From a virus, in the IMG/VR virus record IMGVR_UViG_3300034069_000411: a stretch of DNA of 64,000 bases. One strand, written 5' to 3'. Numbering within the stretch: position 1 is the first letter of the stretch; every line of letters begins with the position of its first letter. A model generated the notes under the pieces. It was given only the letters and a program-made list of their open reading frames with translations. It did not search any database and was not told the origin of the DNA. The position numbers and the translations under genes were made by a program. Positions 21,310-63,997 of this stretch are shown piece after piece.

Positions 21310-21327
21310 GTGGCGATGCCTTTCAGA

Positions 21328-22842
21328 TTAAGCGCAGGGCTGCGCGGGGAGGGCGGGGAAGAACGACCAGCCGCAGGTGAAGCCGATAGGCTCCTCCTGA
21401 TGCGCCGCAAAGGTGTCATTCAGCAGCACGGACTGATTGGCGGGATAGTCACGGCCACCGCCGGTCAGAGTGCCCGTCGGGAGATCCATCGCGACGCCGC
21501 CGTCACCATTGCGCAGCACCCAGTCGAAGCCGACCGTCTTGTTGCAGCGGACGCGCTCGATAACGTCCGCGTTCGTGAACAGCATCTGGTTTTCGACGTC
21601 GACCTCAATGTCACCCGCGTTAAGGTATTTCGGCCCGAGGCGGGCCAGCACCTTCTCACCGGCGACGTTATTGGTGAGCGTGAAAGTCGCCGACTTGAAG
21701 TCGGTCGTTAGGCCCTCTTCGTCGACATCCTGTACGCGGAGGCGCGCGATATCCGACGCGGTACCGAACGCCTCGGTCTGCCCGCCGACCTTGGCATCGG
21801 CGGCATTCGCGGCGCGGGCCGACGTCGGGTTGAGCGTGTTGACGCCGACGAAACCCAGCGTAACCGTCGCCTTGCCCGACAGCGGGATCGCGATCGAGAT
21901 ACTGTCAGCCCAGTTGCCGATCGAGTACTCGTATCCCGTGAGCCCGCCCGGCATGAGGTTCGGGCTCGCCAGCTCAAACTGCGCGCTCGGCTGGAAGAAG
22001 TCGGGGTGGTCGATGTCGACGTTGCGCACGAATTGGCCGAACAGGATGTCGACCGCGATACCCGTGCCGGCGTCTGCGACAAAATCCTGATCGCGCTTAG
22101 CGAGCGTCAGCTTGTGAGCCGCGATCTGGGAGACGCGGGCAAAGCCGAAGTTCTCGTCGTTCGCGAACTGATTTAGCAGGTCGAGGCCGCCGATGTGGAT
22201 CACCTGCCCGGCGACGATGCCCAGCGTCGTGAAGTCGAGCGCAACCGACAGCAGGTTACCCGCGCCGTCGATCGAGAGGTCGCCGGTCGCGGCTCGGACA
22301 CCCGCCACCGACACCTCGACCAGATCGTCGATCGCCGGGGTCTCGGTAGCTAGCCCGGCCACCGTGATGACAGACGAGCCCGCGGCCGAGGCGGCTGCGA
22401 GAGGCTTGACGCCGTTGTTCCCGTCGATCGCGAAGCCGCGGCCATGAACGAGGGTCTTGGCACCCCCGGCGCTGTAGATCAGGCGCGACGCCTGCTGCGC
22501 CGACAGTGCGGGGATCGAGTAGGCGGCATTGGTGGCCCCGAGCGGCGCGAAGGCGTCGCCGCCGACATAGCGCGCAAACATGAAATGCTCGGCGAACAGG
22601 CGAAGGTGCGTCAGGGTGACGTCCGCCTCGATCTCGACCGCGCTGTCCAGGTCGGTGATCACGCCCTTGCGTCGCGCGCGGGCTTTGCTGATCGGCGTGC
22701 GGTTCGTCTTGGAGATGGTGGTACCGAACGAGTTGATCGTGTTCGGCTCGAGTTCGAACCACTGCGGCGTCACGGGAAGCACACCGAGGCTGGCCTCCCG
22801 CGCGAACGACAGCGACATTCCGTTGGTCAATACGCGGCCCAT
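21328..22842 (-). CDS. major tail (tube) protein, unusually large (504 aa)
   Basis: Position between the tail-terminator-like gene and the chaperones. No motif-level confirmation. Confidence 0.65.
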   Translation of the reverse strand: MGRVLTNGMSLSFAREASLGVLPVTPQWFELEPNTINSFGTTISKTNRTPISKARARRKGVITDLDSAVEIEADVTLTHLRLFAEHFMFARYVGGDAFAPLGATNAAYSIPALSAQQASRLIYSAGGAKTLVHGRGFAIDGNNGVKPLAAASAAGSSVITVAGLATETPAIDDLVEVSVAGVRAATGDLSIDGAGNLLSVALDFTTLGIVAGQVIHIGGLDLLNQFANDENFGFARVSQIAAHKLTLAKRDQDFVADAGTGIAVDILFGQFVRNVDIDHPDFFQPSAQFELASPNLMPGGLTGYEYSIGNWADSISIAIPLSGKATVTLGFVGVNTLNPTSARAANAADAKVGGQTEAFGTASDIARLRVQDVDEEGLTTDFKSATFTLTNNVAGEKVLARLGPKYLNAGDIEVDVENQMLFTNADVIERVRCNKTVGFDWVLRNGDGGVAMDLPTGTLTGGGRDYPANQSVLLNDTFAAHQEEPIGFTCGWSFFPALPAQPCA

Positions 22843-29953: not shown

Positions 29954-30495
29954 CAGTCACGGTCCTCGGCGAGCCAGCCATCGCGGCGATAGTCAGCATA
30001 GCGGCCCTCGTAGGGGCGGCACCCGTCCGAGGCACCGCTGACATACGCGCCGGAGTTCGTGCCGTCATCGTCAGCGCCCGGCGGGCAGAGGAGCCCGGCC
30101 CCGAGCAGCATCTTCCACAGCGCCGACGGGATCGGGGGCCCGCCCTCGACCGCGGCGAAGAACTCGACCTGCGCCGATCCGGCCTTGGCGATCTTCACGT
30201 TGCTGTTGCCGCTGGCGTCAGCGAACAGCTTAGGCTTGGTGAGCAGATCACAGGCCAGCATGGCGGTCACCTCCTGCACGACGGCGGGCTGCTCCAGCGC
30301 GGCCGGATCCGGCGCGGTACCGCACCACGGGAGGGTCATCATCATGCGGGTCGCCGACACGATGCCCCGCCCATGTGCGTCGGCCTGTTTCAAAGCCCAG
30401 AGCGTTGCGCGGCTGACATCGCCGGCAAGGTACCGGGTGGCGTTCTCGATGGTCGTCAGCGCGTCGAACTCGAGTTGCCCGATCATAACCTTCAT
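29953..30495 (-). CDS. hypothetical head-module protein (180 aa)
   Basis: ATGA overlap with the portal stop. Confidence 0.55.
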   Translation of the reverse strand: MKVMIGQLEFDALTTIENATRYLAGDVSRATLWALKQADAHGRGIVSATRMMMTLPWCGTAPDPAALEQPAVVQEVTAMLACDLLTKPKLFADASGNSNVKIAKAGSAQVEFFAAVEGGPPIPSALWKMLLGAGLLCPPGADDDGTNSGAYVSGASDGCRPYEGRYADYRRDGWLAEDRD

Positions 30496-32087
30496 CGACG
30501 TGCCCTCCGCTTCGCCATTTTCGTTCGTGACCGTAGGACCTTCGTGATCCGCCGGGCGTCAGCGTTGCCCTCGACACCGTCCGCGGGATCCGGCGCGGTC
30601 CCGCTGTTGCGCCCCGGGTTCAGCGACAGATCCATTTCGTCGACCCGCTCGGGCGGGCGTGATAGGCCCCAGATATCGTAGATCTCGCCGACGGCGGGAT
30701 CGTCAGGCATGACGGGCGCGCCGGCCTGCGCCAGTTTCGCCAGACCGTCCAGCAGCTGCTCGACGTCGCGGTCGCTGATCTCGTTCACGCCCATCTCGGG
30801 GCGCAGTTCCTCCGGCCACCCGTTCAGATCCGCGATCGGGGTCAGCACATCGCGGTCGATCACTTCGACCAGGTCGAGCAGGGTCGACGTGATCGTCAGG
30901 TAAAACGTGCCTACCTTTGACCGCGCCAGCGCGAGAGAGCCCGACCCGTCGGCACCCAGCAGCAGATGCTCGACGCCGAGGACGCGGGCCAACTCCTGAT
31001 TCGTGCGGGTGATCGCGGCGGCGATGTCGGCGAAACTGCTGCTGTCGCCGGTGAGCAGTTCCAGCCCCCATTTCGGCACCGCGGACGGCGTCGTCGCTTT
31101 GTCGGTGCCCTGACCGATGAACGGATCCGACGGGAGCATGACGCCGGTTTTCTTGTTGCGGACGTGCTTGTCGATGAAGTCGCGCAGGGGCCGTAGCATC
31201 GCGGCGCGACGGCCCTCGGCCTTGGCGCGCTCCGGGGATCCTACCCCGCCGGCCGCCTCTACCTCGGCCTTCAATTCGCCGAGCGGCGCGCGCGCGATCG
31301 GGATCCCGCGCAGATCCGTGGTGAAGCCGATGTTCTCAAGCTCGAGCAGCTGACGTAGCCGTTCCGCGCTTTCGGCGAGGTGGCGGTAAAGCCCCATGCC
31401 CTCGGGGCTGTCGGTCAGGGTGTCGTCGACCGCGTAGACGATCTTCGCGCGGGGCAGGGGGACCTCGTTGAGGCCGGGCACCCGCTGCACCACCCCGAGG
31501 ACGGTGCCCGAGGCATCGCGCAGCCAGCGCGCGATCGAGCGTTGCGGCCGATGCTCGATGTCCTTGAGGCCGATCGACCCGTCCTCATTCCGCTTGGCGG
31601 TCCACTCCATGATGGAGAAGCCCTGCAGGCGGTACGCCGCGATCTTCTTGATGACCGACGACCAAGGCGTCGTCATGTCGAACAGCATGTCATAGGCGGC
31701 GTCGGCGTAGCCCTGGGCGATCGGGGCCTCGTTGTCGTTCAGGCCCTCGGGCGGGTTCACCGTCCAGACCGCGTTCGCGATGAGGTTGAGAAAGACGCGG
31801 ACGCCGGCGGAAACGATCGATACATCGCGGACCAGCCGGTCGTATTCGTCGAACCGGGCTGATCCGACCAGCGAGACGCGCGGATCGTTGTAGCTACCGG
31901 AGTAGCCCGACAGATCCGCCGCGGAATCGAGGCTCGACCCCAGCGTGTTGGTCGACCCGCCGTCGGCCTTCTGGATCTCGTCGCCGGTGCTGATCACGGC
32001 GTCGACCATGGGATCGCTGATGGCGTCGGATCGCGCGTCACCGCCGAACCAACTCCCCATGCGCTCGAAAATGCTGTCCTCGGCCAA
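30492..32087 (-). CDS. portal protein (531 aa)
   Basis: Size and position (first structural gene after the terminase, followed by MuF-like). TTG start with GGGAG SD. An ATG alternative exists at 32060. Confidence 0.65.
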   Translation of the reverse strand: MAEDSIFERMGSWFGGDARSDAISDPMVDAVISTGDEIQKADGGSTNTLGSSLDSAADLSGYSGSYNDPRVSLVGSARFDEYDRLVRDVSIVSAGVRVFLNLIANAVWTVNPPEGLNDNEAPIAQGYADAAYDMLFDMTTPWSSVIKKIAAYRLQGFSIMEWTAKRNEDGSIGLKDIEHRPQRSIARWLRDASGTVLGVVQRVPGLNEVPLPRAKIVYAVDDTLTDSPEGMGLYRHLAESAERLRQLLELENIGFTTDLRGIPIARAPLGELKAEVEAAGGVGSPERAKAEGRRAAMLRPLRDFIDKHVRNKKTGVMLPSDPFIGQGTDKATTPSAVPKWGLELLTGDSSSFADIAAAITRTNQELARVLGVEHLLLGADGSGSLALARSKVGTFYLTITSTLLDLVEVIDRDVLTPIADLNGWPEELRPEMGVNEISDRDVEQLLDGLAKLAQAGAPVMPDDPAVGEIYDIWGLSRPPERVDEMDLSLNPGRNSGTAPDPADGVEGNADARRITKVLRSRTKMAKRRARR

Positions 32088-32228
32088 CGCCCGGCTCCCT
32101 GTGCTGCTCGGGGTGGTCTTATCGCAGGGGCGGGGCGGGGGATAGTCGGCGGCGTGGGCCTCGAACCCTACGGGGCCGCATCAGCCCTATCACCTGCCCG
32201 TCGTGCGCTTCGGGACGCCGCCTCGATG

Positions 32229-32302
32229 TTGCGGGGACAGGATTCGAACCTGTGACCTCCAGCGCATGAAGCTGGCGAGCTACCGGGCTGCTCCACCCCA
32301 CG
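32229..32302 (-). tRNA. tRNA-Met (anticodon CAT), initiator-like acceptor/D arm with non-initiator anticodon arm
   Basis: Hand-folded cloverleaf. C1 opposite A72, A11:U24, anticodon stem CCAGC/GCTGG, loop TTCATGC, T arm ACAGG-TTCGAAT-CCTGT. No encoded CCA. Confidence 0.85.
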
Positions 32303-32319
32303 GGGGCTGGATGGCAAAC

Positions 32320-32347
32320 GGCCCGCCCTCGGTCAAGAGGACGGGCC
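32320..32347 (-). terminator. conserved bulged-A hairpin (family copy 2)
   Basis: GGCCCGCCCTC-ggtcaa-GAGGACGGGCC. The minus-strand read is followed by GTTTGCC. Lies 17 nt upstream of the tRNA 5' end. Confidence 0.45.
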
Positions 32348-32642
32348 GTCAGTATCGCACCGCCAATTCGGGCGACGGTGCCGTGTGAGCCGGTCGTTAC
32401 CCCGGCGATGTGTTTCCCGTTGGTCCCGAGGGACTTTCAGAGCGGAGCGGCCACCTACCTGCCTAAAGCCCCCGGCTGATCTTTATCGGCCCCGGGGGAG
32501 CCTAGCCCGTCTCCGGAATATCCGGGCTGTCACACGGCGGTCCCTGCTACCGAGGGGCCGACCAACCTACCCCTGCCGGCGCGTCCGCCGCGTGATCCCG
32601 GTGTTCCTACCGGGGCCGCCTCTGGCGAGGCGTCGGACCCGG
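32320..32642 (-). ncRNA. candidate structured ncRNA or long structured tRNA leader (~300 nt)
   Basis: Bounded by a promoter-like motif and a hairpin. Many local helices and a 9-bp long-range pairing. No credible ORF. Confidence 0.35.
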
Positions 32643-32648
32643 GAACGG

Positions 32649-32677
32649 CGTTGCTCCCCACCGTCCCGATTCGCAAG
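32649..32677 (-). promoter_or_regulatory. promoter-like motif CTTGCGA-N-GGGGAGCAACG (minus-strand copy)
   Basis: Same CTTGC-N13-GGGGAGCAAC spacing as 968-996 and 3011-3039. Confidence 0.4.
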
Positions 32678-32690
32678 CTGAAACGTAAAC

Positions 32691-32719
32691 GGCCCGCCCC
32701 CTGTGCAGAGGGACGGGCC
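32691..32719 (-). terminator. conserved bulged-A hairpin (family copy 3)
   Basis: GGCCCGCCCCC-loop-GGGACGGGCC. The minus-strand read is followed by GTTTACGTTT. Downstream of gene 32798..33055. Confidence 0.45.
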
Positions 32720-32797
32720 GGCCAGCCGGGGGCTCAAGATACCCCGACCTACTTCCACCGCGTGCGGGCCTAACACCCGGGCGCGATGGCTATCTGG

Positions 32798-33055
32798 TTA
32801 TCGCTTGCGATCCGACGAGTAGCGCGGGACGCCGGCTTCGTGCCGGAGGCCGTTCTGGATGCCGCGGGGAAGTGCGTTGCCGTCGATCCGGATGGTCAGG
32901 CCGAACGTGTCGGTCGCGAGGCGCGTCGGTTCCGGGCTGAACAGGGCGGCGCAGTCGCGCATGAACGCCCCGGCGCGTGCGATCGTGGATGCGAAGGCGG
33001 CGTAGGCCGAGAGCGCGGGGGCGATGATCAGGGCGAATAGCAGGCTGCGACGCAT
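32798..33055 (-). CDS. small secreted protein (85 aa)
   Basis: AGGAGA SD 5 nt before the ATG. Signal peptide MRRSLLFALIIAPALSAYA. Lies between the terminase and portal genes. Confidence 0.55.
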   Translation of the reverse strand: MRRSLLFALIIAPALSAYAAFASTIARAGAFMRDCAALFSPEPTRLATDTFGLTIRIDGNALPRGIQNGLRHEAGVPRYSSDRKR

Positions 33056-33116
33056 GACGGTCTCCTAACAGGGTGGCGGGTGCCGGAGGCGAACCTGCGT
33101 CAGACCGGGCTCGGGG

Positions 33117-34781
33117 TCAAGCCGCGCCCCACGGGTCGTCGTCATAGCCGGCCTCGGCCATCGCATCGGCCAGCACCTGCTCATCGCTGCCCGGCTCGAC
33201 GACCTCGGGCCCGGCGTTGACCGTCACCTCGGCCATGTCGATGATCTCGCCATAGGCGCGGCTGCTCGCGTCGATCTGATCCTTGAAGGCACCCGCGGGG
33301 AACGTCCGCATTTCCTCGACATAGTCGTGGTTCCACGCACCCTTCACCAGCCGCACCATCCCGAGGCCCACCTGTGAGGCGAACGGCTCGGCGCGACCGA
33401 TCTTGTCGAGGCGGCCCTCGGTCGTGATCCGGAGATTGAACTTGCCGAGGTGTTCGGCGAGGTCGTGCTTCTGAACTTTGCCGGCCGAGGCGGGATCTTG
33501 CGGCAGCGACTGCAGGGTGCGCGGGTCGATATCGAAATCGGCCTGGGCGACCGCCTTGATGTTGGTGCGCAGCTCATCCGGGCCCCAGCGGTCACGGCGG
33601 ACATCGGCGATGTAGATCAGGCCGTTGACCCGCTTCATTTTGACGCCGGCCGTGAAGGCTGACCGGCGGTCCTTCGAGGCGGCAAGATCCCAGCCGCGGA
33701 CCCATGACCCGCCGCTCGGCGCGAAGTCGACGTATCCGATCTGGCCGACCTTGAACATGCCGCCCTCGCGCGGGGCCGGGCGCTGCAGGTACTGACCGTT
33801 GTACGCATACTCGCCGATCTTTTTCAGCTGCTCGATCGCGGCCGGGGGCACGCGGACCGGGTCCATCGGCTCGCCCATGTAAGAGCGCGGGTCGGTCCAG
33901 TCGGTCTTGCCGCCCGCCCCGTCGTCGACCTTGAGCGGCGTGGTGCAGCGCCGGTCCGGTTCGAACTCCATCGGGATCATCAGGTGGACGAACCCGAACT
34001 CGCGCGCGAGCAGCACGCCGGTCAGATCCTTCTCATGCAGGCGCTGCATGACGATGACGATCGCGGACGTCTCCCAGTCGTTCGTTCGGTTCAGGCCGCC
34101 CTCGATGAAGGCCTGCACCGCGCCGTCGCGCTGTACCTCTGATTCCGCGCCCTTGAGGTTGTGCGGATCGTCGACGATCAGGCGGTCGCCGCGCTTGCCG
34201 GTCACGCCGTAGAAGCTGACGCCGAGGCGGGTGCCGGTGTCGTGATTGCCGAACGACAGCTTGCCCGCCGTCTTCATCCTGACCTCGGGCCACAGCGACT
34301 GGAACCATTCGGACCGGACCACGTCGAGCGTCTTGCCGGTGTCGCGCTTCACGTTGCCCAGATCGAACGACGTCGTGACATAACGGAGGTGGCGTCGGCC
34401 GAACGGGCCCCATTCCCATGCCTGCCACAGGACGGTGACGATCGTCGATTTCGACGAGCCCGGGGGGACGTTGATGATCAGGCGGGGGTGCAACTGGCCG
34501 CGGCTGATCGCCTCCAGATGATCGCACATCGCCTGCATGTGCCAGTTCCACCGCAGGGTAGTGCCCGGCTCGATGATCTTCCACGCGTACCGGACGAACC
34601 CGGCGAAGGTCTGGCATTCGGCGCGGACCCGGTCAGCGTCGCGCTCGACCTCGTCCATCATCGCTTCGTGCTGTCGCCGCGCTATCTCGCGCTTGTAGGC
34701 CGCAACCGACAGCGGCAGTTCGTTGCGGGGCGTCCAGCCGGTCGCGACCGGCGAGTCGTCAAGGCTCGCCAGTGATGTCAT
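33117..34781 (-). CDS. terL: terminase large subunit (554 aa)
   Basis: Walker A VPPGSSKST, Walker B RLIVDDPH, C-terminal nuclease-type region. Synteny with TerS and the portal. Confidence 0.9.
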   Translation of the reverse strand: MTSLASLDDSPVATGWTPRNELPLSVAAYKREIARRQHEAMMDEVERDADRVRAECQTFAGFVRYAWKIIEPGTTLRWNWHMQAMCDHLEAISRGQLHPRLIINVPPGSSKSTIVTVLWQAWEWGPFGRRHLRYVTTSFDLGNVKRDTGKTLDVVRSEWFQSLWPEVRMKTAGKLSFGNHDTGTRLGVSFYGVTGKRGDRLIVDDPHNLKGAESEVQRDGAVQAFIEGGLNRTNDWETSAIVIVMQRLHEKDLTGVLLAREFGFVHLMIPMEFEPDRRCTTPLKVDDGAGGKTDWTDPRSYMGEPMDPVRVPPAAIEQLKKIGEYAYNGQYLQRPAPREGGMFKVGQIGYVDFAPSGGSWVRGWDLAASKDRRSAFTAGVKMKRVNGLIYIADVRRDRWGPDELRTNIKAVAQADFDIDPRTLQSLPQDPASAGKVQKHDLAEHLGKFNLRITTEGRLDKIGRAEPFASQVGLGMVRLVKGAWNHDYVEEMRTFPAGAFKDQIDASSRAYGEIIDMAEVTVNAGPEVVEPGSDEQVLADAMAEAGYDDDPWGAA

Positions 34782-35325
34782 CAGGGTCCAAGCCCTCGGC
34801 GATCGCGGAGAGGCGGCCGTAATTCTTCAGATCCGCTGGCGACAGGCGCGACAGGTCGACGCTACCGCCGAACGGTTCAGACGCCTTCGGCCCGGCGTCG
34901 ATCTTCGTCGTCCATCCGCCGAGGCGGGCGAGGATGAACTTTTGCGCGTCCAGGTCGCCCTTCGCGATCGGCTTCCCGTCAGCCCCGACAGCGTCGACAT
35001 TGATCGCGCGGTTGATCACCTGCGCGCCGACCGCGGCCAGCATCTCGGCGCGGCCCAGTTCCATGTCGTCGGCGTGGTGACGCCGTAGCGTGCTGGTACT
35101 GATGCCGACGAGGCGGGCGATCAGATGCTCGCCGTGCAGCGGGAAGGTCTTTGCGTAGTCGCGGACCTTCTTTCGCTGTTCCTCGCTGGGGATGTACGGG
35201 GCCTGCCCGATCCGGCCGCCGTGGGGCGGGGTCACGGTCCCGGTGCCGGGCTTCGCGCCGCGCGCGTCGTCGGGGCGGACCTTGGGGTTTGAGGCTGTTG
35301 GGGTCTGTGGCGGTCGATCAGACAT
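34759..35325 (-). CDS. terminase small subunit candidate (188 aa)
   Basis: HTH-like LIARLVGISTSTLRRH. Immediately upstream of and overlapping terL. Confidence 0.6.
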   Translation of the reverse strand: MSDRPPQTPTASNPKVRPDDARGAKPGTGTVTPPHGGRIGQAPYIPSEEQRKKVRDYAKTFPLHGEHLIARLVGISTSTLRRHHADDMELGRAEMLAAVGAQVINRAINVDAVGADGKPIAKGDLDAQKFILARLGGWTTKIDAGPKASEPFGGSVDLSRLSPADLKNYGRLSAIAEGLDPDDITGEP

Positions 35326-35388
35326 CGGGGCGTCATAGGCCGACAGATTTGCCCGGTCGAGTCCTAGACGCCCCTGTGGCTTCCCGAC

Positions 35389-35826
35389 TTATTCGGGAAG
35401 GTGACGGGCCACTTCGGCGAGGGTTGCGGCGTCCGGTTTCCAGAAGAGCGGCGCTACGGTGCCCCGGCAGGGGATGAAAGGCAGCGCGATCGGGTTGCGC
35501 AGGACCAGCGCGCGCGGCCCCATCCACCACGGACTCGTGCTTTCGGTAACGGCGTCGACGATCTCGACCGCGCCGACGATGCCGCCGCGTTTCAGGTCAT
35601 CGAAATGGGGCCGCCCGCCGTGCCGCTTGAAACCGGTCGCGTTCATCGCGTGGCCCATGAACTCGATCGCGGTGTCGTATTCCTCGCGGGTCATACCGGC
35701 GGACGCGTGAATAAGGGTCAGGCCGCGGTGGCTGAACAGCGACTTGCGGTTCTCCAGGTCTTTGCCGTCGTGGATGATCGCCCAAGCCCAAGGCTGGCGG
35801 ACGGAGAGGGCAAGGAGCGAGGCCAT
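35389..35826 (-). CDS. ASCH domain protein (145 aa)
   Basis: N-terminal LSVRQPWAWAIIHDGKDLENR...LTLIHAS matches the ASCH consensus as I recall it. Confidence 0.75.
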   Translation of the reverse strand: MASLLALSVRQPWAWAIIHDGKDLENRKSLFSHRGLTLIHASAGMTREEYDTAIEFMGHAMNATGFKRHGGRPHFDDLKRGGIVGAVEIVDAVTESTSPWWMGPRALVLRNPIALPFIPCRGTVAPLFWKPDAATLAEVARHLPE

Positions 35827-35834
35827 GTCGCCGC

Positions 35835-36500
35835 CTACTCCCCGTCACGGCGGGTGACAATCGTGAACCGCTCCGCGATCCGGTCGGCCCCCGCGGTCAG
35901 CTGCGGCAGGTCAGGGCGGTCGGCCGGGGGGCGATCCCAAGACGGCTCCCATGTCGCGCAGGCCTCGTCCTGCGGTACGCGGACCAGCCGCCCGGCGTCG
36001 AGGTCGGCGAGGACAGAGACGATCAGCCGCACCCCCATCGGGAACAGCGCCTCGCGCCACAGATCCGAGGCGCGCGTGCCCGGTCGGATCATCACCCAGT
36101 CGGCCGCCGCGATCGGACCGCCATCGACCCGGGGTGACAGCCAATAGATCGACCCGCCGGTGACCGGGTCGCCCATGTGGCACGCCCACTTCACGGCGTC
36201 CCGGCCGCGGTGGCGTGGTAGCAGTGACGGGTGGTACCCGATGCCGCCCAGCAGCGTGCGCGACAGGGCGCGGTCGCTGACGATGACGTGAGCGTGTGCG
36301 CAGACGATCAGGTCGAGCCCCTCGGGCAATTCGTCGGCGGTGAGGCGGGCCGCGCTGACCGGGATGCCGAGACGGCGGGCCTCCCAGTCGAGGCGGTCGT
36401 CGATCGGCGCGAACACGGCGGCCACATCGTGCCCGGCCTCTACGATCGCGCGCAGCGCCGCGGCCCCGAAACTCCGCTGTCCAACCAGAGCAACCCTCAT
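35835..36500 (-). CDS. formyltransferase, Fmt/PurN-like catalytic domain only (221 aa)
   Basis: Start refined to the ATG in the ATGA overlap (ORF 35835..36857). MRVALVGQ, HPSLLPRHRG, PQDEACATW linker. No Fmt C-terminal domain. Confidence 0.8.
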   Translation of the reverse strand: MRVALVGQRSFGAAALRAIVEAGHDVAAVFAPIDDRLDWEARRLGIPVSAARLTADELPEGLDLIVCAHAHVIVSDRALSRTLLGGIGYHPSLLPRHRGRDAVKWACHMGDPVTGGSIYWLSPRVDGGPIAAADWVMIRPGTRASDLWREALFPMGVRLIVSVLADLDAGRLVRVPQDEACATWEPSWDRPPADRPDLPQLTAGADRIAERFTIVTRRDGE

Positions 36501-37687
36501 GCCGCCGCCTTCTCCAATGCTTTGCGGGCGGCCCATGCCTCCCCGCGATATTTGAACCCCTGCACGGCGCGGAAGTGCCCGCCGTACCCGGCAACGCCGG
36601 ACTCGAAATTGCCCTTTTTCTCGGTCTGTTTCCGCTCCGACTTCTTGAGCGACGCGATCGACTTCGACCTCGACGACCCGTGGAGGGACGCGCTGATCTG
36701 TTCCCACCTGGGATCGCGGCGCAGCGCGGCGCATAGGCCGGGGTGGCTGGTGTGGAAGAAGCCGCACTTCACGCGGTCGCCAAACTGGCCGAGGCCGGTC
36801 ACCTCGCGCTCCATGACCCAGTTTAGGAACTTCATCCCCACGCCGGCCCCCTGCCACTCGGGCATGATCACCATGCGGCAGCCGCGAATCCCGCCGGTGT
36901 TCAGGCGGGGCGCGATCCCGAGGTGGGCGACCGGCTCGCCGTCGACGAACGCGACGAAATACCGGCAGGCCACCATGCGGGGCAGTTTCAGATAGTGATG
37001 CGGCTCAAAGAGGTCCCAGTAGGAGCCGTCGACCTGCCGAATCTCAAGTTCGATAGGAGGTCTTCGCCTAAGACGCCTCCCTGCGGCATCCCGCTCGAAC
37101 ACGCCTGTCGACGTGTCAAAAATCCAATCGGGCTCGAGCCAGTCGAGGACGTCGTAGTGGCATGACAGCAGCACCGCCTTACCCGGGGTGCGCCGCCACG
37201 CCTTTTGGAACGCGAGCGCGCCCACCTTCGCGATCTGGCGGTCGACGACGGACGTGAACTCGTCGATCACGACCGCGGCCGGCTCCTCGGCGACGATCCG
37301 CGCCAGTTCGGCCCGGAACTTCTCGCCGTTCGACAGCACCCCATAGGGCCGCAGCCATGACGGGACAGAGCCCAGCCCGACGGCTGACAGAGCGGCGGTA
37401 ACGGAATTGAAGTCGCCCCCGGGCGCGATGGCGTCGACGATCGGGGCGTCGTCAGGCCAGACCCCGCCGGTCCACAGCGCCTCTTCGCCGAGGATGCGAC
37501 GACCTAGCGAGGTTTTGCCGGATCCAGACGGGCCGACGACGACGCCGACTTTCCAGTCATCGTCATCGATCGCTAGATCGGCGTCCAGGTCGAACGCCTG
37601 ACCGGACTCGGCATTGAACAGGGATTGCACCCGAGCAGCGCGATAGCTCTCGTAGTGCGGGCATCGGTTTCGGATCTCGATTTTCAT
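36497..37687 (-). CDS. ABC-type ATPase fused to a GNAT acetyltransferase domain (396 aa)
   Basis: Start refined (GGAGG SD, MKIEIRN). GPSGSGKT, LSNGEKFR, VVIDEF, then the GNAT motif RMVIMPEWQGAGVGMKF. Confidence 0.7.
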   Translation of the reverse strand: MKIEIRNRCPHYESYRAARVQSLFNAESGQAFDLDADLAIDDDDWKVGVVVGPSGSGKTSLGRRILGEEALWTGGVWPDDAPIVDAIAPGGDFNSVTAALSAVGLGSVPSWLRPYGVLSNGEKFRAELARIVAEEPAAVVIDEFTSVVDRQIAKVGALAFQKAWRRTPGKAVLLSCHYDVLDWLEPDWIFDTSTGVFERDAAGRRLRRRPPIELEIRQVDGSYWDLFEPHHYLKLPRMVACRYFVAFVDGEPVAHLGIAPRLNTGGIRGCRMVIMPEWQGAGVGMKFLNWVMEREVTGLGQFGDRVKCGFFHTSHPGLCAALRRDPRWEQISASLHGSSRSKSIASLKKSERKQTEKKGNFESGVAGYGGHFRAVQGFKYRGEAWAARKALEKAAA

Positions 37688-37722
37688 GCGGCCTCCGGGG
37701 GCCGCCATACGCCAGATGCAAA

Positions 37723-37760
37723 TGACCCGCCAGTCCGGGAGGGGGTGGACTGGCGGGTCA
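37723..37760 (-). terminator. strong hairpin between the parB-like and ATPase-GNAT genes (terminator/attenuator candidate)
   Basis: GACCCGCCAGTCC-N10-GGACTGGCGGGTC, a perfect 13-bp stem. The minus-strand read is followed by ATTTGCATC. Confidence 0.5.
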
Positions 37761-37820
37761 CCTTGGGCCGCACCGCGCGAAAGGGGGGGACGCGTCGGGC
37801 ACCCCCACCATATCACCGGA

Positions 37821-38498
37821 TCAGACGACGACAACCTTGACGTTTTCGGCCCCGTAGATCTCGCGCAGGCTGTTGAAGCAGGACTCCTGCTCGCCCTCTG
37901 ACGCGCACTTCACGATGACGGCAAACTGGTCGACGTGCTGATAGTCGCTGTCGTTTTCGGTACCGCCGGTCTTGCGGGTAGAGCCGGTGCCGGCATCACC
38001 GCCGCCCATGTCGACGAGAGCGTCAGCGCCGAAGCCCAGCGGGGCCATGTCGAAGTCGACCGCGGCGAGGGCGTCGAGCTCTCCGGTCAGGATCTCGATG
38101 TCCCAGCCGGCATTCTCGGCGATCCGGTTGTCGGCGAGCGCGTAGGCGCGCCGCTCCTCATCGGTCCATCCCTCGCACCCGATGACGGGTACAGCCCCGT
38201 CGGGGAGCAGCGTGCCGCCCCTGTCCTCGCCCGGGGCCATGTAGATCCGGCCGCCCTCGCCGTAGATCACCTGCGCAGCTGCGCGCCGGCCGTGCCCGGC
38301 CCTGATCAGGTCATCGGCGAGGATCGGGTTCGTCCAGCCGAACCGGCGGATCGACGCAACGATCTCGGCGATCTGCTCGGGGCTGTGCGTGCGGGCGTTG
38401 CGGGGATCCGGCGTCAGGTCCTCGACCTGGCGTAGCTGGATGGCGGGCTTCCGAGCGGCGGGTTTCGTCATGGGCGCAATCGGTAGACCCAGTGCCAC
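37821..38498 (-). CDS. ParB/Srx-like N-terminal domain protein (225 aa)
   Basis: DPRNARTHSPEQIAEIVASIRRFGWTNPIL...GHGRRAAA. GTG start, with an ATG alternative at 38471. Confidence 0.8.
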   Translation of the reverse strand: MALGLPIAPMTKPAARKPAIQLRQVEDLTPDPRNARTHSPEQIAEIVASIRRFGWTNPILADDLIRAGHGRRAAAQVIYGEGGRIYMAPGEDRGGTLLPDGAVPVIGCEGWTDEERRAYALADNRIAENAGWDIEILTGELDALAAVDFDMAPLGFGADALVDMGGGDAGTGSTRKTGGTENDSDYQHVDQFAVIVKCASEGEQESCFNSLREIYGAENVKVVVV

Positions 38499-38562
38499 CG
38501 CTGATCAATCAGGACCATGCGGCGCTCGATCCAGCGCAGCCATGGGCGAAGGGGCTGCCACG

Positions 38563-38865
38563 TCATCGCCGGCCTCGTTTCCGGGGGCGCATGCCGCGCG
38601 GGATCGCGAACCGCTGAACGGATAGGCCGTCGCCCGATCGCAGGACCATCACGTCAGGGATCGGGCCGAGGACGGCGTCCCATCCCTCCCGCTCGGCGCG
38701 CGCCTCGATCGCCTGCTGCTCTAGGAACTTCTCGCGGTGACAGTGCCCGCAGAACTGCCCCGGCCTCCATTTGGGGCCGACGGCATGCCCCGCGTCGCAG
38801 ACCTTGGGGGCCTTCTTCGGGATGGTGCGGGGCTTTGGGGCGGCGGTCTTAAGGGTGGTGGCCAT
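38563..38865 (-). CDS. hypothetical zinc-ribbon-like protein (100 aa)
   Basis: CDAGH...CGHCH motif. Confidence 0.5.
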   Translation of the reverse strand: MATTLKTAAPKPRTIPKKAPKVCDAGHAVGPKWRPGQFCGHCHREKFLEQQAIEARAEREGWDAVLGPIPDVMVLRSGDGLSVQRFAIPRGMRPRKRGRR

Positions 38866-38897
38866 CCCGGGAGAGCAGCACGCGCGCCCCTATCGGG

Positions 38898-39101
38898 TCA
38901 AGGGCTGCTGTCGGGGTCGTCTTCGGGGATCGGTACGACCCGCTCCAGCGCGTCGAGCGCCGGCTTTATCCAGAGGTTCTCGAATCCGGCGCGCAGGCTG
39001 TTGGCGGTGTTTCGCCATGCAGGGCCCATGCGATCGAACTCGGCGGCGTAGGCCTCTCGGGCCTGCTGTCTTGCGCGTGTCACGGTCCGGCGCGGTAGCA
39101 C
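38898..39101 (-). CDS. hypothetical protein (67 aa)
   Basis: ORF in the operon strand only. Confidence 0.4.
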   Translation of the reverse strand: MLPRRTVTRARQQAREAYAAEFDRMGPAWRNTANSLRAGFENLWIKPALDALERVVPIPEDDPDSSP

Positions 39102-39124
39102 CGGCCCCGGTCAGCGTCGAGTGG

Positions 39125-39337
39125 CTATAGCAGCGAGCCTTGCCCGGCATCAGCGGTCGGCAGGCCGGCAAAGGGGTCGGTGACAGGCATGGGCTCGGCC
39201 TTAGCGTTGCAGCGCGCACAACGCCACGGCGTGCCCTCCTTGCCCCCGTCCAGGTTGAACGACGGGTGGCGCTTCGGGCAGTCGGCGCACACCTTTGGTT
39301 TCCATTTCGGCCCGGCCGCGCGCTCCGCTTTGCTCAT
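39125..39337 (-). CDS. hypothetical zinc-ribbon protein (70 aa)
   Basis: CADCP...CARCN pairs. Confidence 0.5.
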   Translation of the reverse strand: MSKAERAAGPKWKPKVCADCPKRHPSFNLDGGKEGTPWRCARCNAKAEPMPVTDPFAGLPTADAGQGSLL

Positions 39338-39735
39338 AGCCCCGCTCTCCTCAATTCCTCACGCAGCCCCGGTGGCAGCGCCACATCGTCAGGCCGCTCG
39401 TCGCCCGATCCGATCCTGACGCACCGCGCCCAGACGGACCGGATCAGGCGCTCGGTTTTGACCAGCCGGATCCGCCTGGGCGATCCCGGCGGCAGTTCCC
39501 AGAGCGAGGTCACCTTCCCGCGGCGCATCACCGCGCGCCAGTGCGCGATCAGCTTGCGCCGGCGGGTCTTGACCAGCGCGGGCACCCGCCGCCAGTGGGG
39601 CCCGCACATCCAGCCCGGGTCCTTGGTGCCGGTCTCAAGCCAGACCCAGCCGTCGGCCTGCGGGATCCGCGTCGTGCCCCGGGTGCAGCCGGGCACGCTA
39701 CAGCTGACGCGCGGGTGGCCGCTGGTCTTAGCCAC
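39334..39735 (-). CDS. hypothetical Cys-rich protein (133 aa)
   Basis: GTG start refined from ORF 39334..39963, whose 5' part overlaps gene 39728..39973. CSVPGC...CGPHW. Confidence 0.45.
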   Translation of the reverse strand: MAKTSGHPRVSCSVPGCTRGTTRIPQADGWVWLETGTKDPGWMCGPHWRRVPALVKTRRRKLIAHWRAVMRRGKVTSLWELPPGSPRRIRLVKTERLIRSVWARCVRIGSGDERPDDVALPPGLREELRRAGL

Positions 39736-60177: not shown

Positions 60178-61107
60178 ATGGACAATTTTCCCGAACCTGT
60201 ACTCGCCCTGTTACGGCGAGAGGGCACCGGCATCAGCTGGACCCACCTGACCTTCAACCCGTGGATCGGGTGCCAGAAGGTCAGCCCGGCGTGCGCGGGA
60301 TGCTACGCCGAGATCGTCGCAAAGAACCGGCTGAACGTCGCGTGGGGCCCCGGCGCTGAACGCCGCCGTACCAAGCCGGCGACGTGGGCGAAGGTCCGAC
60401 GCTGGCAGCGCGTAGCGGCGGCCTCCGGGGTCACCCTGCGCGTCTTCTGCGCCAGCCTCGCCGACTGGGCCGACAACGCGGTCGACGATGCGTGGCGGGC
60501 TGACCTCGCCGCCGAGATAACGGCCACCCCCAACCTCCAGTGGCTGATGCTGACGAAGCGCATCGGAATTGCCCGGCGCGCGCTGGAGCGGATGTTTCCC
60601 GACGGGGTGCCGGCCAACGTCGCACTGGGCGTGACGATCGCCAACCAGGAGGAGGCGGACCGTGACATGCCGAAGGCTCTGTCGGTCAAGGCCGGGCTCG
60701 GTATCCGCCGCCTGTTCCTATCATGCGAGCCACTGCTGGGGCCGCTCGATCTGACGAAGTGGCTGGCGGTGCCCGGCGCGATCGACCTCGTCATTGCTGG
60801 CGGCGAGAGCGGTACAGAGGCTCGGCCGATGCACCCGGACTGGCCGTGGATCGTCCAGGGCGATTGCGAGGACGCCGGGGTGCCGTTTCACTTCAAGCAA
60901 TGGGGGGAGTGGAAGCCTTGGGCTCCGAGCGACCGGGGCCGGGTCAGGCACGTCAGCCTGCGCGACGGGGCCTCGGGCGACGAGCCCGGCCGCATTGACG
61001 GCGAGCGCAACCTTCGCGCCGACACGCGCCCGGTGAGCCGGGCTGGAACAGTAACTGCAGGCCGCACACTGCGCGGCAAAGAGCATCAGGAGCAGATCGC
61101 ATGCTGA
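60178..61107 (+). CDS. phage Gp37/Gp68 (DUF5131) family protein (309 aa)
   Basis: ISWTHLTFNPWIGCQKVSPACAGCYAE and GGESG..ARPMHPDW, FHFKQWGEW motifs. Confidence 0.75.
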   Translation: MDNFPEPVLALLRREGTGISWTHLTFNPWIGCQKVSPACAGCYAEIVAKNRLNVAWGPGAERRRTKPATWAKVRRWQRVAAASGVTLRVFCASLADWADNAVDDAWRADLAAEITATPNLQWLMLTKRIGIARRALERMFPDGVPANVALGVTIANQEEADRDMPKALSVKAGLGIRRLFLSCEPLLGPLDLTKWLAVPGAIDLVIAGGESGTEARPMHPDWPWIVQGDCEDAGVPFHFKQWGEWKPWAPSDRGRVRHVSLRDGASGDEPGRIDGERNLRADTRPVSRAGTVTAGRTLRGKEHQEQIAC

Positions 61108-61754
61108 ACGACACCATTAACGCCGCTGAGGCGGCGAAGCATATCTACGGCTCCACCATCGGCCTCGGCGACGGCAGCTATTTCGACTATCTCGACCCGG
61201 CCTCGACCGGGATGACGATGGAGGATTACGCCTACGCTCTGGCCTATACCTGCCGGTTCCGGGGCCAGACCTGGTCGAACGGCCGGCGGGTGTTCTACGG
61301 CGTCGGCCAGCACTGCGTCATCGGTACCGAGCGGATGCTTGTCGACGGGCACAGCGTGCGCGATGCGCTGGCCTTCCTGATGCATGAGAGCGACGAGGTG
61401 CCGTGGGGTGACTTCGCGAGCCCGGCGAAGCCGCTGATGCCTGCCGAGTTCCGCGCCCTGATCAAGTCGAACGGCAAGGCGATCGACCTGCACTTCGGCA
61501 TCGTCACGCCCGACCCTGACCTGATCAAGCGGTATGACATCCGCCTGTTCGCTACGGAGAAACGGGATCTGATGCCCCAGTTCAGCCGCCAGACTTGGAC
61601 GAAGGATCAGATCAGCACCGCCGCTGCCGAGGGGTACGAGCCGTTCGATTCCGTCATTACGCCGGCCGCGCACCCGGACGAGGCCGCGGAGCGGTTCCTG
61701 ATGCTCTATTCCGTCCTCACCGATCGCCTCGCACGCGAAGGCGCAGCCGCATGA
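61101..61754 (+). CDS. HD-superfamily hydrolase-like protein (217 aa)
   Basis: EDYAYALAYTCRFRG, VGQHCV, FLMHESDEVPWGD resemble phage HD/YfbR-like proteins, with HE in place of HD. Confidence 0.5.
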   Translation: MLNDTINAAEAAKHIYGSTIGLGDGSYFDYLDPASTGMTMEDYAYALAYTCRFRGQTWSNGRRVFYGVGQHCVIGTERMLVDGHSVRDALAFLMHESDEVPWGDFASPAKPLMPAEFRALIKSNGKAIDLHFGIVTPDPDLIKRYDIRLFATEKRDLMPQFSRQTWTKDQISTAAAEGYEPFDSVITPAAHPDEAAERFLMLYSVLTDRLAREGAAA

Positions 61755-63997
61755 GGCTCGCTCCTGTCACCAAGACCTACCGCGTCGGCCACCTGTTCTG
61801 CGGCGTCGGATCCGGCGCGGCCGGCTTCAACGATGCGAACCCGAGGGTCAACGGCGTCGCCGCGCGGTTCGTGTGCGCCGGGGGCGTCGACTCCGATCGC
61901 GGGGCTATCGACAACTTCGATCTGATCACCGGGTCGAAGGGCACCGTCATGGATCTGTTCGACCGCGAGCAGTTCATCTCCTTCCACGGTCACGAACCCC
62001 CGGCCGGTTGGCGGGAGGCCAACCCCGCCGACATCCGTCGGGCGCACGGCGACCTTCCGCTCGACGTGATGTTCCTGTCGGCCCCGTGCAAAGGCTTCTC
62101 GGGGCTGCTGTCAGCCAAGGCGTCGGGGGCTGACAAATATCAGGCGCTTAACGCCCTGACAGTGCGCGGCGTCTGGCTGACGCTTGAGGCGTACAAGGAT
62201 GACCCGATCAAGATCATCCTGTTTGAGAATGTCCCGCGGATCCTGACGCGCGGCCGGGCGCTGCTCGACAAGATCCAAGCTCTGCTCCGGGCCTATGGGT
62301 ATGTCTTTGCAGAGACGACGCATAACTGCGGCGAGATCGGCAACCTCGCCCAGAGCCGCAACCGGATGCTGATGGTTGCGCGGCACTCCGCGTCGGTGCC
62401 CCCGTTCCTGTACCAACCCGCAAAGTCCGCCCTGCGCGGCGTCGGTGAGGTCATCGGCCTGCTACCGCTCCCGGGTGACCCGATGGCGGGGGGCATGCAC
62501 CGCGTCCCGCAGCTGCAGTGGAAGACGTGGGTGCGCCTCGCGTTCGTCCCAGCCGGTAAGGATTGGCGCGCGCTCAATGATCTGGCTGTCGAGGACGGCC
62601 ACCTGCGCGACTACGGGATCGTGCCCGAGGTGAAGATGCGCGACAACCAGCTGGGCGTGCTGGACTGGGCTGACACCGCGCCCGTCCTGACCGGTCAGCG
62701 TTCGCCGGCACAGGGCCGTTTCAGCGTCGCGGATCCTCGAATCGAGAGCGTCCACAACGAGACGCTCGGCGTTCGCCCGTGGGAGGCCGCGGCGCGCGTC
62801 GTCGCCGGGGCGAGCCGGCCGGCCAACGGCGCGCATAGCGTCGCGGATCCCCGACCCCAGCAGGCCAACCAGAGTTTCGCCCAGTACGGGGTCAAACCAT
62901 GGGAGGAGACCGCGGCAACGGTCACCGGACAGGCGGCACCTGGAGGCGGGCCTAACTCGATCGCTGACCCGCGCCTCGGCCGCGTTGCCCATTCGAACGT
63001 CTACCGGATCGCTCGATTCGATCAGCCGTCGTCGGCGGTGACATCCAGCCGCGACACCGCCGTCGCGGATCCGCGCGCGACGACAGGATTCGAAGGGGCG
63101 GGCAAGTACAGGGTCACCGCCTACGGCGAGGCCGCCGGTACCGTCATCGGCGGGTCGACCACGGGACAGGGGGCGTTCGCGCTCGCTGACCCCCGGCCGA
63201 CACACGGGCCGAACGCCCACGCGACTAAGCACAAGGTGGTCGGGTACGATGACACGGCCCCGGTGGTCACCGGCAGCGACCGCGTCGGGTCCGGCGCGCT
63301 GTCAGTTGCTGACCCGCGCCCCGGGTACACCGACGCGCACCACAACGTCATGAAGGTCACGCCGTTTGACGAGCCTGCGGGCACCGTGACCAGCGGGGGC
63401 GGCCCCAGCAACGGGGCGATCAGCGTCGCCGACCCGCGGCCTGTCGGGCTCAATGCCGACGCCCGCGAGGGCTACGCGACGCAGGGGCACTACGGAGTGC
63501 TTGGCTGGGATGAGACGAGCAAGGCGGTGCCGGGGTACGCAAAGTACGATCGCGGCAACTGGTCGGTCGCTGACCCCCGGGATCTTGAAATGGAGGCCGC
63601 ACCCGCGCTGCCCGCCGCCAACACCCGCCTCGTCGCCCGCATCATCGCGCGCGACGGCACATGGCACCGGCCCTTCACGACGCTTGAGCTGGCGGCGCTC
63701 CAGTCGATCTTCGATCCCGAGGAGGTGTTCGCGGTCGACGAGGCAACCGGTCAGTGGACCCGGCGGGCCGAGTTCGATCTGATCGGGGGCAGTGATCAGA
63801 CGAAGCGCGAGTGGATCGGCAACGCGGTGCCGCGCGCCGCCGCCCGGGGCATGGCGGAAACGATCGGCGAGACGCTGCTTCTGGCGGAACAAGGCGAGAC
63901 GTTCGTGTTGTCGAGCCGGGCGATCTGGACGAAGCCTCTAGCCCTCGCGCTGGCCGTCGACCCGCGCCAGTCGGTGTGCGGCGAGGTGATCCTGTGA
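61751..63997 (+). CDS. DNA (cytosine-5) methyltransferase with eight tandem TRD-like repeats (748 aa)
   Basis: Start refined to the ATGA overlap. Motifs FCGVGSG, PCKGFS, ENV, QSRNR, GNAVP in order. Repeat array lies between motifs VIII and IX. Confidence 0.85.
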   Translation: MRLAPVTKTYRVGHLFCGVGSGAAGFNDANPRVNGVAARFVCAGGVDSDRGAIDNFDLITGSKGTVMDLFDREQFISFHGHEPPAGWREANPADIRRAHGDLPLDVMFLSAPCKGFSGLLSAKASGADKYQALNALTVRGVWLTLEAYKDDPIKIILFENVPRILTRGRALLDKIQALLRAYGYVFAETTHNCGEIGNLAQSRNRMLMVARHSASVPPFLYQPAKSALRGVGEVIGLLPLPGDPMAGGMHRVPQLQWKTWVRLAFVPAGKDWRALNDLAVEDGHLRDYGIVPEVKMRDNQLGVLDWADTAPVLTGQRSPAQGRFSVADPRIESVHNETLGVRPWEAAARVVAGASRPANGAHSVADPRPQQANQSFAQYGVKPWEETAATVTGQAAPGGGPNSIADPRLGRVAHSNVYRIARFDQPSSAVTSSRDTAVADPRATTGFEGAGKYRVTAYGEAAGTVIGGSTTGQGAFALADPRPTHGPNAHATKHKVVGYDDTAPVVTGSDRVGSGALSVADPRPGYTDAHHNVMKVTPFDEPAGTVTSGGGPSNGAISVADPRPVGLNADAREGYATQGHYGVLGWDETSKAVPGYAKYDRGNWSVADPRDLEMEAAPALPAANTRLVARIIARDGTWHRPFTTLELAALQSIFDPEEVFAVDEATGQWTRRAEFDLIGGSDQTKREWIGNAVPRAAARGMAETIGETLLLAEQGETFVLSSRAIWTKPLALALAVDPRQSVCGEVIL
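62647..63580 (+). repeat. 8 x 34-47-aa coding tandem repeat ending in S-V-A-D-P-R
   Basis: ADPR codons recur from 62729 to 63569. Units share ..GV.xW(D/E)..A.TVTG......G..SVADPR. Confidence 0.8.

Follow-up and report, generated by a model that had tools for sequence, protein, structure and literature searches.

A widespread phage cassette of ParB-like, ABC-ATPase::GNAT and formyltransferase proteins: a candidate system for acylation of phage DNA

In phage Mu, Com controls the DNA-modifying gene mom. The product of this gene, Mom, transfers glycine from Gly-tRNAGly onto the N6 of adenine in double-stranded DNA (dsDNA) in a post-replicative manner (PMC13219725). A system that combines an ABC-ATPase with a GNAT protein was predicted by Iyer et al. 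in 2013 (NAR), and again in 2021 (Viruses; PMC7824862), to acylate a DNA nucleobase. A DNA thymine dioxygenase is activated on dsDNA by phage ParB proteins in which no DNA-binding domain is apparent (PMC13229309), and fusions of ParB folds to methyltransferases, PUA-like/ASCH domains and acetyltransferases are frequent (PMC12704722). Here, we describe a locus of the viral record IMGVR_UViG_3300034069_000411 (the window, that is, the whole stretch of 64,000 nucleotides that was analysed), which encodes a ParB-like protein, an ABC-type ATPase fused to a GNAT acyltransferase (AG), a formyltransferase and an ASCH protein next to the terminase genes. The claim of a sequence-only reading that no described system has this gene set was too strong in view of the predictions of 2013 and 2021, and the window cassette belongs to a family that is computationally known and biochemically uncharacterised. 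The explanation that fits best is a ParB-assisted, ATP-driven and acyl-coenzyme A (acyl-CoA)-dependent N-acylation of the bases of the phage's own DNA, analogous and not homologous to the reaction of Mom, which seems to us about as probable as its negation.

The cassette and its conservation

AG comprises an ABC-type ATPase (residues ~1–200) and a GNAT acyl-CoA N-acyltransferase domain (residues ~205–396). This architecture, first read from motifs, is borne out by Pfam (ABC_tran, 1e-7; Acetyltransf_1, 21.8 bits against a cut-off of 20.7; and Acetyltransf_7 as well), by full-length membership of PHROG 11143, which covers residues 1–384 with an E value of 2.9e-143, by invariant motifs and by structural models. 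The Walker A GPSGSGKTS, the signature LSNGE, the Walker B VVIDEF, which includes the catalytic Glu, and the H-loop H177 are invariant in homologue alignments, the D-loop SVVD is retained, and the GNAT motif A (R-x-V-x-x-P-E-W-Q-G-x-G-x-G) is invariant across AG clades. Since an AlphaFold model of full AG (pLDDT 79) gave Foldseek matches to ABC nucleotide-binding domains only, the GNAT domain was modelled apart from the ATPase (residues 202–396; pLDDT 85.7), and its PDB matches were solely acyl-CoA GNATs, with a probability of 1.00. Against PDB sequences, the GNAT profile found generic GNATs only, with weak scores. Assignment of AG to the Mom family was rejected (hhalign of the GNAT profile against Mu Mom, probability 0.1%), as was its assignment to TmcA, since Pfam finds only ABC_tran/AAA and GNAT and the TmcA structure (2zpa) occupies rank 48 in the fold search. 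The start codon at 37687 (MKIEIRN, with GGAGG 6 nt upstream) matches the N-termini of homologues, and a longer open reading frame (ORF) from a TTG at 37834 was discarded because it disagrees with them. In the homologues P0494 and P0496, the ABC ATPase domain is interrupted by inteins (Hint plus LAGLIDADG homing endonuclease), elements that usually mark highly conserved and functionally critical sites.

The AG family is unusually conserved for a phage gene. It includes 537 clusters (50% identity) at E<1e-30, with more than 575 matches in IMG/VR and more than 575 in GTDB, and relatives at 54–65% identity are present in Pseudomonadota, Bacteroidota, Planctomycetota, Verrucomicrobiota, Chloroflexota, Acidobacteriota, Bacillota, Actinomycetota, Desulfobacterota and other phyla. 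Gene neighbourhoods were compared at 80 viral loci from IMG/VR and 75–76 genomic loci from GTDB. The formyltransferase gene lies directly downstream of AG in 71 of the 80 IMG/VR loci, with contig ends accounting for 6 of the 9 exceptions, and in 63 of the 76 GTDB loci, which span more than 10 phyla; in the reverse check, all three formyltransferase relatives (3/3) had AG directly upstream, with stop and start overlapping. A ParB-like gene is found directly upstream of AG in 42/80 IMG/VR and 20/75 GTDB loci, and the whole ParB-like protein is fused to the N-terminus of AG in P0391 and P0410 (hhalign 97.2% and 99.35%, respectively). Other loci bear a Com zinc-ribbon gene ~120–130 nt upstream of AG (15 IMG/VR loci plus phiE255, and 17 GTDB loci), and Com and ParB never co-occur in this position. 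Burkholderia phage phiE255 carries com, gp28, gp29 (AG) and gp30 (formyltransferase), in this order, at the end of the tail genes, its com being an unannotated gene (L001:4638-4868; CP000622 about 21311-21541) that matches Pfam Zn_ribbon_Com at 3.3e-16; in Mu, the right end carries com-mom behind the tail-fibre and gin genes. In the phiE255 paper, gp29 bears the label 'ABC transporter' and gp30 the label 'formyl transferase', and no function is proposed for them. Among cultured phages, the Gordonia phages NHagos, Yago84 and BiggityBass carry ParB-AG-formyltransferase.

The cassette is located immediately upstream of terS/terL in many siphophages, among unrelated phage types; in Mu-like and Porphyromonas phages, it stands where the tail genes end, a long way from the terminase. 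In Erythrobacter phage ZS04 (PV416405), the slot upstream of terS is taken by a DNA-methyltransferase fusion. This 812-aa protein (L088:9790-12228) consists of an N6/N4 DNA methylase and a pyridoxal phosphate-dependent (PALP) domain, is adjoined by a remnant similar to phosphoadenosine phosphosulfate reductase, and may represent another DNA hypermodification enzyme. A sister clade of AG proteins, with 30–40% identity to the window AG, keeps the ParB-AG pair and replaces the formyltransferase with an aspartate decarboxylase (PanD) and a CoA_transf_3-like gene, as in the Rhodococcus/Gordonia phage Jace and ~19 IMG/VR loci. The CoA-transferase-like protein of Jace has only a weak PDB match, to a family III racemase, and therefore nothing marks it as specifically a formyl-CoA transferase. 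Directly upstream of a distant AG homologue, a gene similar to the pyruvoyl enzyme S-adenosylmethionine (AdoMet) decarboxylase is found at L118:3123-3509, L126:364-789 and two further loci, in phage contigs that encode a family B DNA polymerase, and is possibly a third kind of accessory enzyme. That ParB, AG and formyltransferase constitute one functional unit, a mobile cassette shared among very different phages, is well supported.

The formyltransferase had been regarded as a truncated Fmt-like enzyme. The formyltransferase core stands (Pfam Formyl_trans_N, 2.7e-16), whereas the truncated Fmt is ruled out in favour of a short family of the 10-formyl-THF dehydrogenase (FDH) type, since its members are consistently short (173–247 aa among the 120 relatives listed, most of them ~215–247 aa) and the family profile is ~50 bits closer to FDH. 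Thus, this profile reaches 145 bits with the FDH N-terminal hydrolase domain (E 2e-41), 92.7 bits with the best Fmt, 67 bits with ArnA, 49 bits with PurN and 45 bits with HypX/HoxX (E 6e-11). The window protein, which is an N-domain only, scores 50 bits with the Fmt equivalog TIGR00460 against a cut-off of 201.5, and the C-terminal OB-fold tRNA-binding domain of Fmt occurs in no member of the family. The catalytic residues His90 and Asp126 are invariant in the family, and the Asn of the Fmt N-x-H motif is replaced by Gly88, at the position where FDH has Ile. FDH passes the formyl group onto the thiol of its 4'-phosphopantetheine, and HypX reportedly produces formyl-CoA from formyl-tetrahydrofolate (formyl-THF) and CoA. 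Judging from its sequence relationships, the phage protein is a predicted short formyl-THF-dependent transferase of the FDH N-terminal/HypX type, which probably makes the donor formyl-CoA.

The ParB-like protein begins with a ParB domain (NxRTHS...AGHGRxxAA), which a linker joins to a small, conserved domain at the C-terminus, and no helix-turn-helix could be recognised in it. Its ParB/Srx-type assignment, already proposed for this ORF, is clear at the level of the family profile, Pfam being silent on the protein alone. As a single sequence, it retrieves nothing from Pfam or from the PDB by phmmer; it matches PHROG 498/620 (1e-37) and the N-terminal part of a type II methyltransferase model of PADLOC (2e-21). 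The PDB matches of the family profile are Noc (the best, 1e-13), ParB, Spo0J, sulfiredoxin and a ParB nuclease. The family, in which AGHGRxxAA is conserved, shares homology with the N-terminal domain found in fusions of ParB to DNA methyltransferases and, by analogy, its member in the cassette probably serves as an adaptor or activator of the acyltransferase.

The ASCH protein had been counted as a fourth member of the unit, and this part of the claim does not hold. YqfB-type ASCH proteins hydrolyse N4-acetylcytidine. The assignment of the window protein to this domain class stands through its homologues, many of which, at ~50% identity, carry PF04266 and NCBI ASCH names; the protein itself has no Pfam match, a weak match to the ASC-1 ASCH domain (E 0.013) and a match to PHROG 3193 (5e-36). 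Proteins of this type are present in 96 of 50,697 phage records. The gene is syntenic only in the lineage of the window (L086, 70% identity; L087, 49%). In Jace, L107, L109 and L125, homologues lie no more than ~1.5 kb from AG, and L125 has the order ParB-AG-ASCH, its ASCH neighbour being recognised as such by Pfam (2.7e-5). However, ASCH as a core member is ruled out by its occurrence in none of the 160 main-clade AG loci, together with its persistence in a 64.6-kb relative (L134/L135) that has lost AG and kept the ASCH and terminase genes. In this relative (region 4576-5498 of L134/L135), only a 136-aa remnant of the formyltransferase is found. We take the functional link between ASCH and AG to be genuine, though sporadic, ASCH being a lineage-specific add-on, which may read N-acylated bases or nucleosides or act on them as an amidohydrolase.

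Proposed base acylation and its rivals

The phage's own DNA is the target best supported by context, because the ParB family is common to DNA methyltransferases, ParB::AG fusions exist, and AG in Mu-like phages follows a com gene in a mom-like late position, and also because of the methyltransferase swap in the slot, the usual terminase adjacency and the independent prior prediction. An acyl or formyl modification of DNA bases had been one of two hypotheses for this locus, and it is supported in outline by the ParB adjacency and fusions, the Com slot and the methyltransferase swap. Regarding the donor, the accessory genes would make it, because the CoA motif of the GNAT domain is kept, the sister-clade accessories are CoA-linked and FDH/HypX chemistry takes place on thiols; the use of formyl-CoA would then imply an N-formyl mark in the clade of the window. 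We infer the DNA target, the acyl-CoA donor, the synthesis of formyl-CoA and the role of ASCH.

According to the proposed mechanism, the cassette would be expressed together with the packaging genes, and phage dsDNA would be modified after replication by N-acylation of the exocyclic amine of a base. The ParB-like protein would bind AG and activate it on duplex DNA; AG would dimerise around ATP like other ABC ATPases, engaging the DNA or exposing the base, and its GNAT domain would move the acyl group from acyl-CoA. The formyltransferase would convert N10-formyl-THF and CoA into formyl-CoA, the unusual donor, so that the mark would be N-formyl, and in the sister clade the aspartate decarboxylase and the CoA-transferase-like enzyme would generate another donor, e.g. 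beta-alanyl-CoA. ASCH would read or hydrolyse the N-acylated bases or nucleosides, and the acyl mark would shield phage DNA from host nucleases, as the Mom modification does for Mu. In its most specific form, the proposal is a CoA-thioester counterpart of Mom, in which a ParB-guided, ATP-driven GNAT writes N-formyl, and N-beta-alanyl or a rearranged carbamoylethyl in the sister clade, with formyl-CoA made on site; this form is tentative and, on balance, doubtful.

Several observations weigh against acylation of DNA as described. The structures nearest to the GNAT domain (PA2578, IAA-AT, SpeG, RimI and GCN5 among them) are small-molecule or protein acetyltransferases, the closest sequence and structure matches of the ATPase domain are transporter and ABC-F ATPases, and no recognisable DNA-binding domain was detected in AG. 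Moreover, ~15% of AG loci lack any accessory enzyme, and the clades of Leptospira phage LE4, Pasteurella phage Pmp13 and streptococcal phages have ParB-AG without one. The formyltransferase could also formylate an amine after transfer, or merely hydrolyse formyl-THF. A literature search brought up no experiments on any member of the AG family, no modified bases are reported for cassette-carrying phages, and the paper on LE3/LE4 contains no DNA-modification data. In addition, N6-acyl-adenine is reported to be unstable (PMC13219725), thus a plain N-formyl group on adenine may not persist, and the target base or the final product could differ. Lastly, the aminoacyl-tRNA donor of Mom was predicted by no one, which makes any derivation of a donor from folds risky.

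The same structural neighbours would suit a cassette that acylates something other than DNA, for example a protein of host or phage origin or a small molecule such as a nucleotide or second messenger, for host takeover or anti-defence, with the ParB/Srx protein as a nucleoside triphosphate-binding regulator and the formyltransferase supplying or tailoring the acyl group. The best PDB sequence matches of the ATPase domain include the ribosome-binding ABC-F proteins ExpZ and EttA, ParB/Srx folds have proteins and metabolites as targets too (PMC12704722), and no DNA-binding domain was detected. Nevertheless, this reading is unlikely: the ParB family involved is one fused to DNA methyltransferases, the cassette has a putatively Com-controlled slot in common with mom, its slot swaps with a DNA methyltransferase, and its terminase adjacency recurs in unrelated phage types, while PADLOC assigned the cassette to no defence system, and neither PADLOC nor the anti-defence families gave matches other than generic ABC ones. 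A modification of DNA that depends on aminoacyl-tRNA, as in Mom, seems improbable as well. In this case, AG would move an amino acid, which might be Met or fMet, from a charged tRNA to a base, the formyltransferase would act on the alpha-amine, on either tRNA or DNA, and the donor could be the initiator-like tRNA-Met of the phage. Mom, itself a GNAT, uses Gly-tRNAGly on dsDNA adenine (PMC13219725), a tRNA-Met(CAT) gene is situated 3 kb downstream in the window, and Formyl_trans_N enzymes typically formylate amines. However, ARAGORN found no tRNA gene in 60 related AG loci, and therefore the tRNA-Met of the window, which had been linked to the cassette, is incidental to it. Furthermore, the Q-G-x-G-x-G that binds the pyrophosphate of acyl-CoA is invariant, the nearest structures are CoA-dependent with no tRNA-dependent FemX-type transferase in the top 50 fold matches, the GNAT profile has no similarity to Mom, the sister-clade accessory genes are CoA-linked, and the formyltransferase lacks the tRNA-binding domain of Fmt and is 50 bits nearer to FDH.

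Two further readings dispense with base chemistry on DNA. In one of them, DNA would be recognised or organised for the terminase with the help of the ParB-like protein and the ATPase, and the GNAT domain and the formyltransferase would be regulatory or degenerate. ParB-like nucleases near terminases are common, and this reading accounts for the position of the cassette immediately upstream of terS/terL in many siphophages, but not for the catalytic motifs of all three enzymes, which are invariant across phyla, nor for the Mu-like and Porphyromonas phages, which place the cassette far from the terminase, nor for dedicated donor-type enzymes that co-vary with the AG clade, and it is very improbable. 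The least probable of all is the other hypothesis of the sequence-only reading, a tRNA-Met-centred remodelling of translation with TmcA-like writing of N4-acetylcytidine, Fmt-like formylation and a YqfB-like eraser, which comparative genomics has largely refuted. Its appeal lay in the resemblance of the ATPase and GNAT architecture to TmcA, in the tRNA-Met gene near the cassette in one phage, that of the window, and in the action of YqfB-type ASCH proteins on N4-acetylcytidine. However, the association with tRNA is not conserved (0/60 loci), and the parallel with TmcA is limited to the generic GNAT fold, with TmcA at rank 48 in the fold search and its RecD-like helicase belonging to another class than the ABC-type ATPase of AG. 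The formyltransferase is nearer to FDH/HypX than to Fmt, never has the tRNA-binding C-domain and stays far below the Fmt equivalog cut-off (50 bits vs 201.5), ASCH is missing from the 160 main-clade loci, and the ParB fusion and the putative Com control find no place in this scheme.

The analysis turns a vague idea of acyl modification into concrete questions that are testable in cultured phages. If acylation of phage DNA by the cassette were true, it would mean a new chemical class of DNA modification, and bases could then be acylated by a second, CoA-based route next to the tRNA-based route of Mom. It would also add a further case of ParB as an adaptor for DNA-modifying enzymes and provide new tools for restriction-resistant DNA. 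The most specific form of the proposal, if true, would mean a new natural DNA modification, the first GNAT that uses formyl-CoA, and a modular logic of donor synthase, writer and ParB adaptor in phages of more than 10 bacterial phyla. Should the prediction fail, the two enzymes, widespread in phages, would need explaining all the same.

The locus in the window

The window is a nearly complete siphophage genome with 66.5% GC, related to Erythrobacter phages, and its terminase region exhibits 76% DNA identity to the Erythrobacter phages vB_EliS_R6L and ZS04. Close relatives of this phage are present in Sphingomonadales-type metagenome bins, and contigs of 26 kb and 67.4 kb carry proteins identical to two window genes. 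The four ORFs are all present where they had been placed (Table 1), and a base-by-base check confirmed both the ATGA overlap between the AG stop and the formyltransferase start at 36497–36500, through which the two genes are translationally coupled, and the 8-nt gap at 35827–35834. A scan of the coding strand from 34500 to 39500 found no promoter-like or terminator-like site, and cotranscription of the cassette with the packaging genes is plausible because no such site interrupts the strand.

Table 1. Features of the cassette and its surroundings in the window.
Feature	Position	Strand	Basis	Remark
ParB-like protein (225 aa)	37821–38498	-	ORF list; PHROG; family profile	
Perfect inverted repeat, ParB-like/AG interval	37723–37760	-	Sequence; RNA fold	
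GC hairpin with Shine-Dalgarno	37688–37705	-	Sequence; RNA fold	
AG, ABC-ATPase::GNAT (396 aa)	36497–37687	-	Pfam; PHROG 11143; motifs; AF2/Foldseek	
Formyltransferase (221 aa)	35835–36500	-	Formyl_trans_N; family profile	
ASCH (PUA-like) protein (145 aa)	35389–35826	-	PHROG 3193; PF04266 in homologues	
terS	34759–35325	-	Terminase_6C, PHROG 38 (cited for terS/terL)	Context, outside the cassette, which runs into it
terL	33117–34781	-	Terminase_6C, PHROG 38 (cited for terS/terL)	Context, outside the cassette
tRNA-Met(CAT)	32228–32302	-		
Portal (Mu type)	30492–32087	-		

The hairpin between the ParB-like gene and AG had been described as perfect over 13 bp. The hairpin exists, but its perfect stem is 14 bp long (37760–37747/37736–37723), with a loop of 10 nt. 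The RNA fold of 37670–37825 has an energy of -78.4 kcal/mol (z = -2.84), and the hairpin is mostly kept in the relative L086 and missing from L087. It is followed by a TTT tail only and the terminator scan did not recognise it as a canonical terminator; it may act as an RNA structure, bind a protein or terminate transcription weakly. A second, 6-bp stem (GCGGCC-CCCGGA-GGCCGC), whose sequence is conserved in L086, encloses the GGAGG Shine-Dalgarno sequence and lies directly against the start codon of AG, whose translation it may limit. This structure over the ribosome-binding site recalls the translation-blocking stem-loop of mom, in a window that has no com gene. An 8-bp hairpin (CTTCCCGA/TCGGGAAG, 35381–35401) spans the stop codon of the ASCH gene, terS being located 63 nt further on.

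The tRNA-Met(CAT) gene lies in a gap of ~1 kb (32088–33116) between the terL stop and the portal start, where no convincing ORF is found. Other likely DNA-modification genes of the window encode a DUF5131 protein (60178–61107), an 800-aa C5-cytosine methylase (61595–63997), which reaches the window end, and a DUF4942 plus methyltransferase protein (1566–2987).

Comparison with described systems

The closest counterpart is the ABC-GNAT system predicted by Iyer and colleagues, with which the locus has in common the two-domain architecture, the intact motifs and the phage or prophage setting. The AG of the window is a full-length member of this family, which rests on computational prediction, and nothing structural sets it apart. 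As regards Mom and Com of Mu, both Mom and AG have the GNAT fold, the AG-formyltransferase pair of Mu-like phages occupies a mom-like late position behind Com, and the expected role is alike, namely a late, post-replicative protection of phage DNA. However, Mom acts alone, whereas AG adds an ABC ATPase and its usual formyltransferase partner; the donor of Mom is Gly-tRNAGly, whereas AG keeps an acyl-CoA-binding motif; no homology between AG and Mom is detectable, and the window has ParB instead of Com. TmcA/NAT10, which links an ATPase to a GNAT whose substrate is an aromatic exocyclic amine of a nucleobase, represents a chemical precedent for ATP-assisted base acylation. Nevertheless, TmcA is composed of a RecD-like helicase, DUF1726 and a tRNA-binding tail, none of which is present in AG with its ABC ATPase, and the likeness between them is that of a generic GNAT core (rank 48, E 1e-4).

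Regarding the accessory proteins, the N-domain of FDH (ALDH1L1) has the YHPSLLPRHRG motif and the catalytic His and Asp in common with the phage formyltransferase, and the activity proposed for the phage enzyme is that of FDH and HypX, which hand the formyl group of 10-formyl-THF to a thiol of pantetheine or CoA. The phage enzyme differs in being a bare catalytic domain of ~220 aa with its own conserved tail (SWDRPP..RPDL), without the acyl carrier protein and ALDH domains of FDH and without the enoyl-CoA-hydratase-like domain of HypX. Finally, in the 5mYOX-ParB system (PNAS 2026) and in the ParB-methyltransferase fusions, as in the window, a short phage ParB, made up of a nucleotide-binding and a C-terminal domain with no obvious DNA-binding domain, stands beside a DNA-modifying enzyme or is fused to it, often by the terminase. 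Binding of nucleoside triphosphates and activation of the partner on dsDNA have been demonstrated for the ParBs that accompany dioxygenases. The 5mYOX dioxygenase needs ParB on dsDNA, whereas the partner of ParB in the window is an ATPase-acyltransferase, which the ParB-like protein would activate in a similar way.

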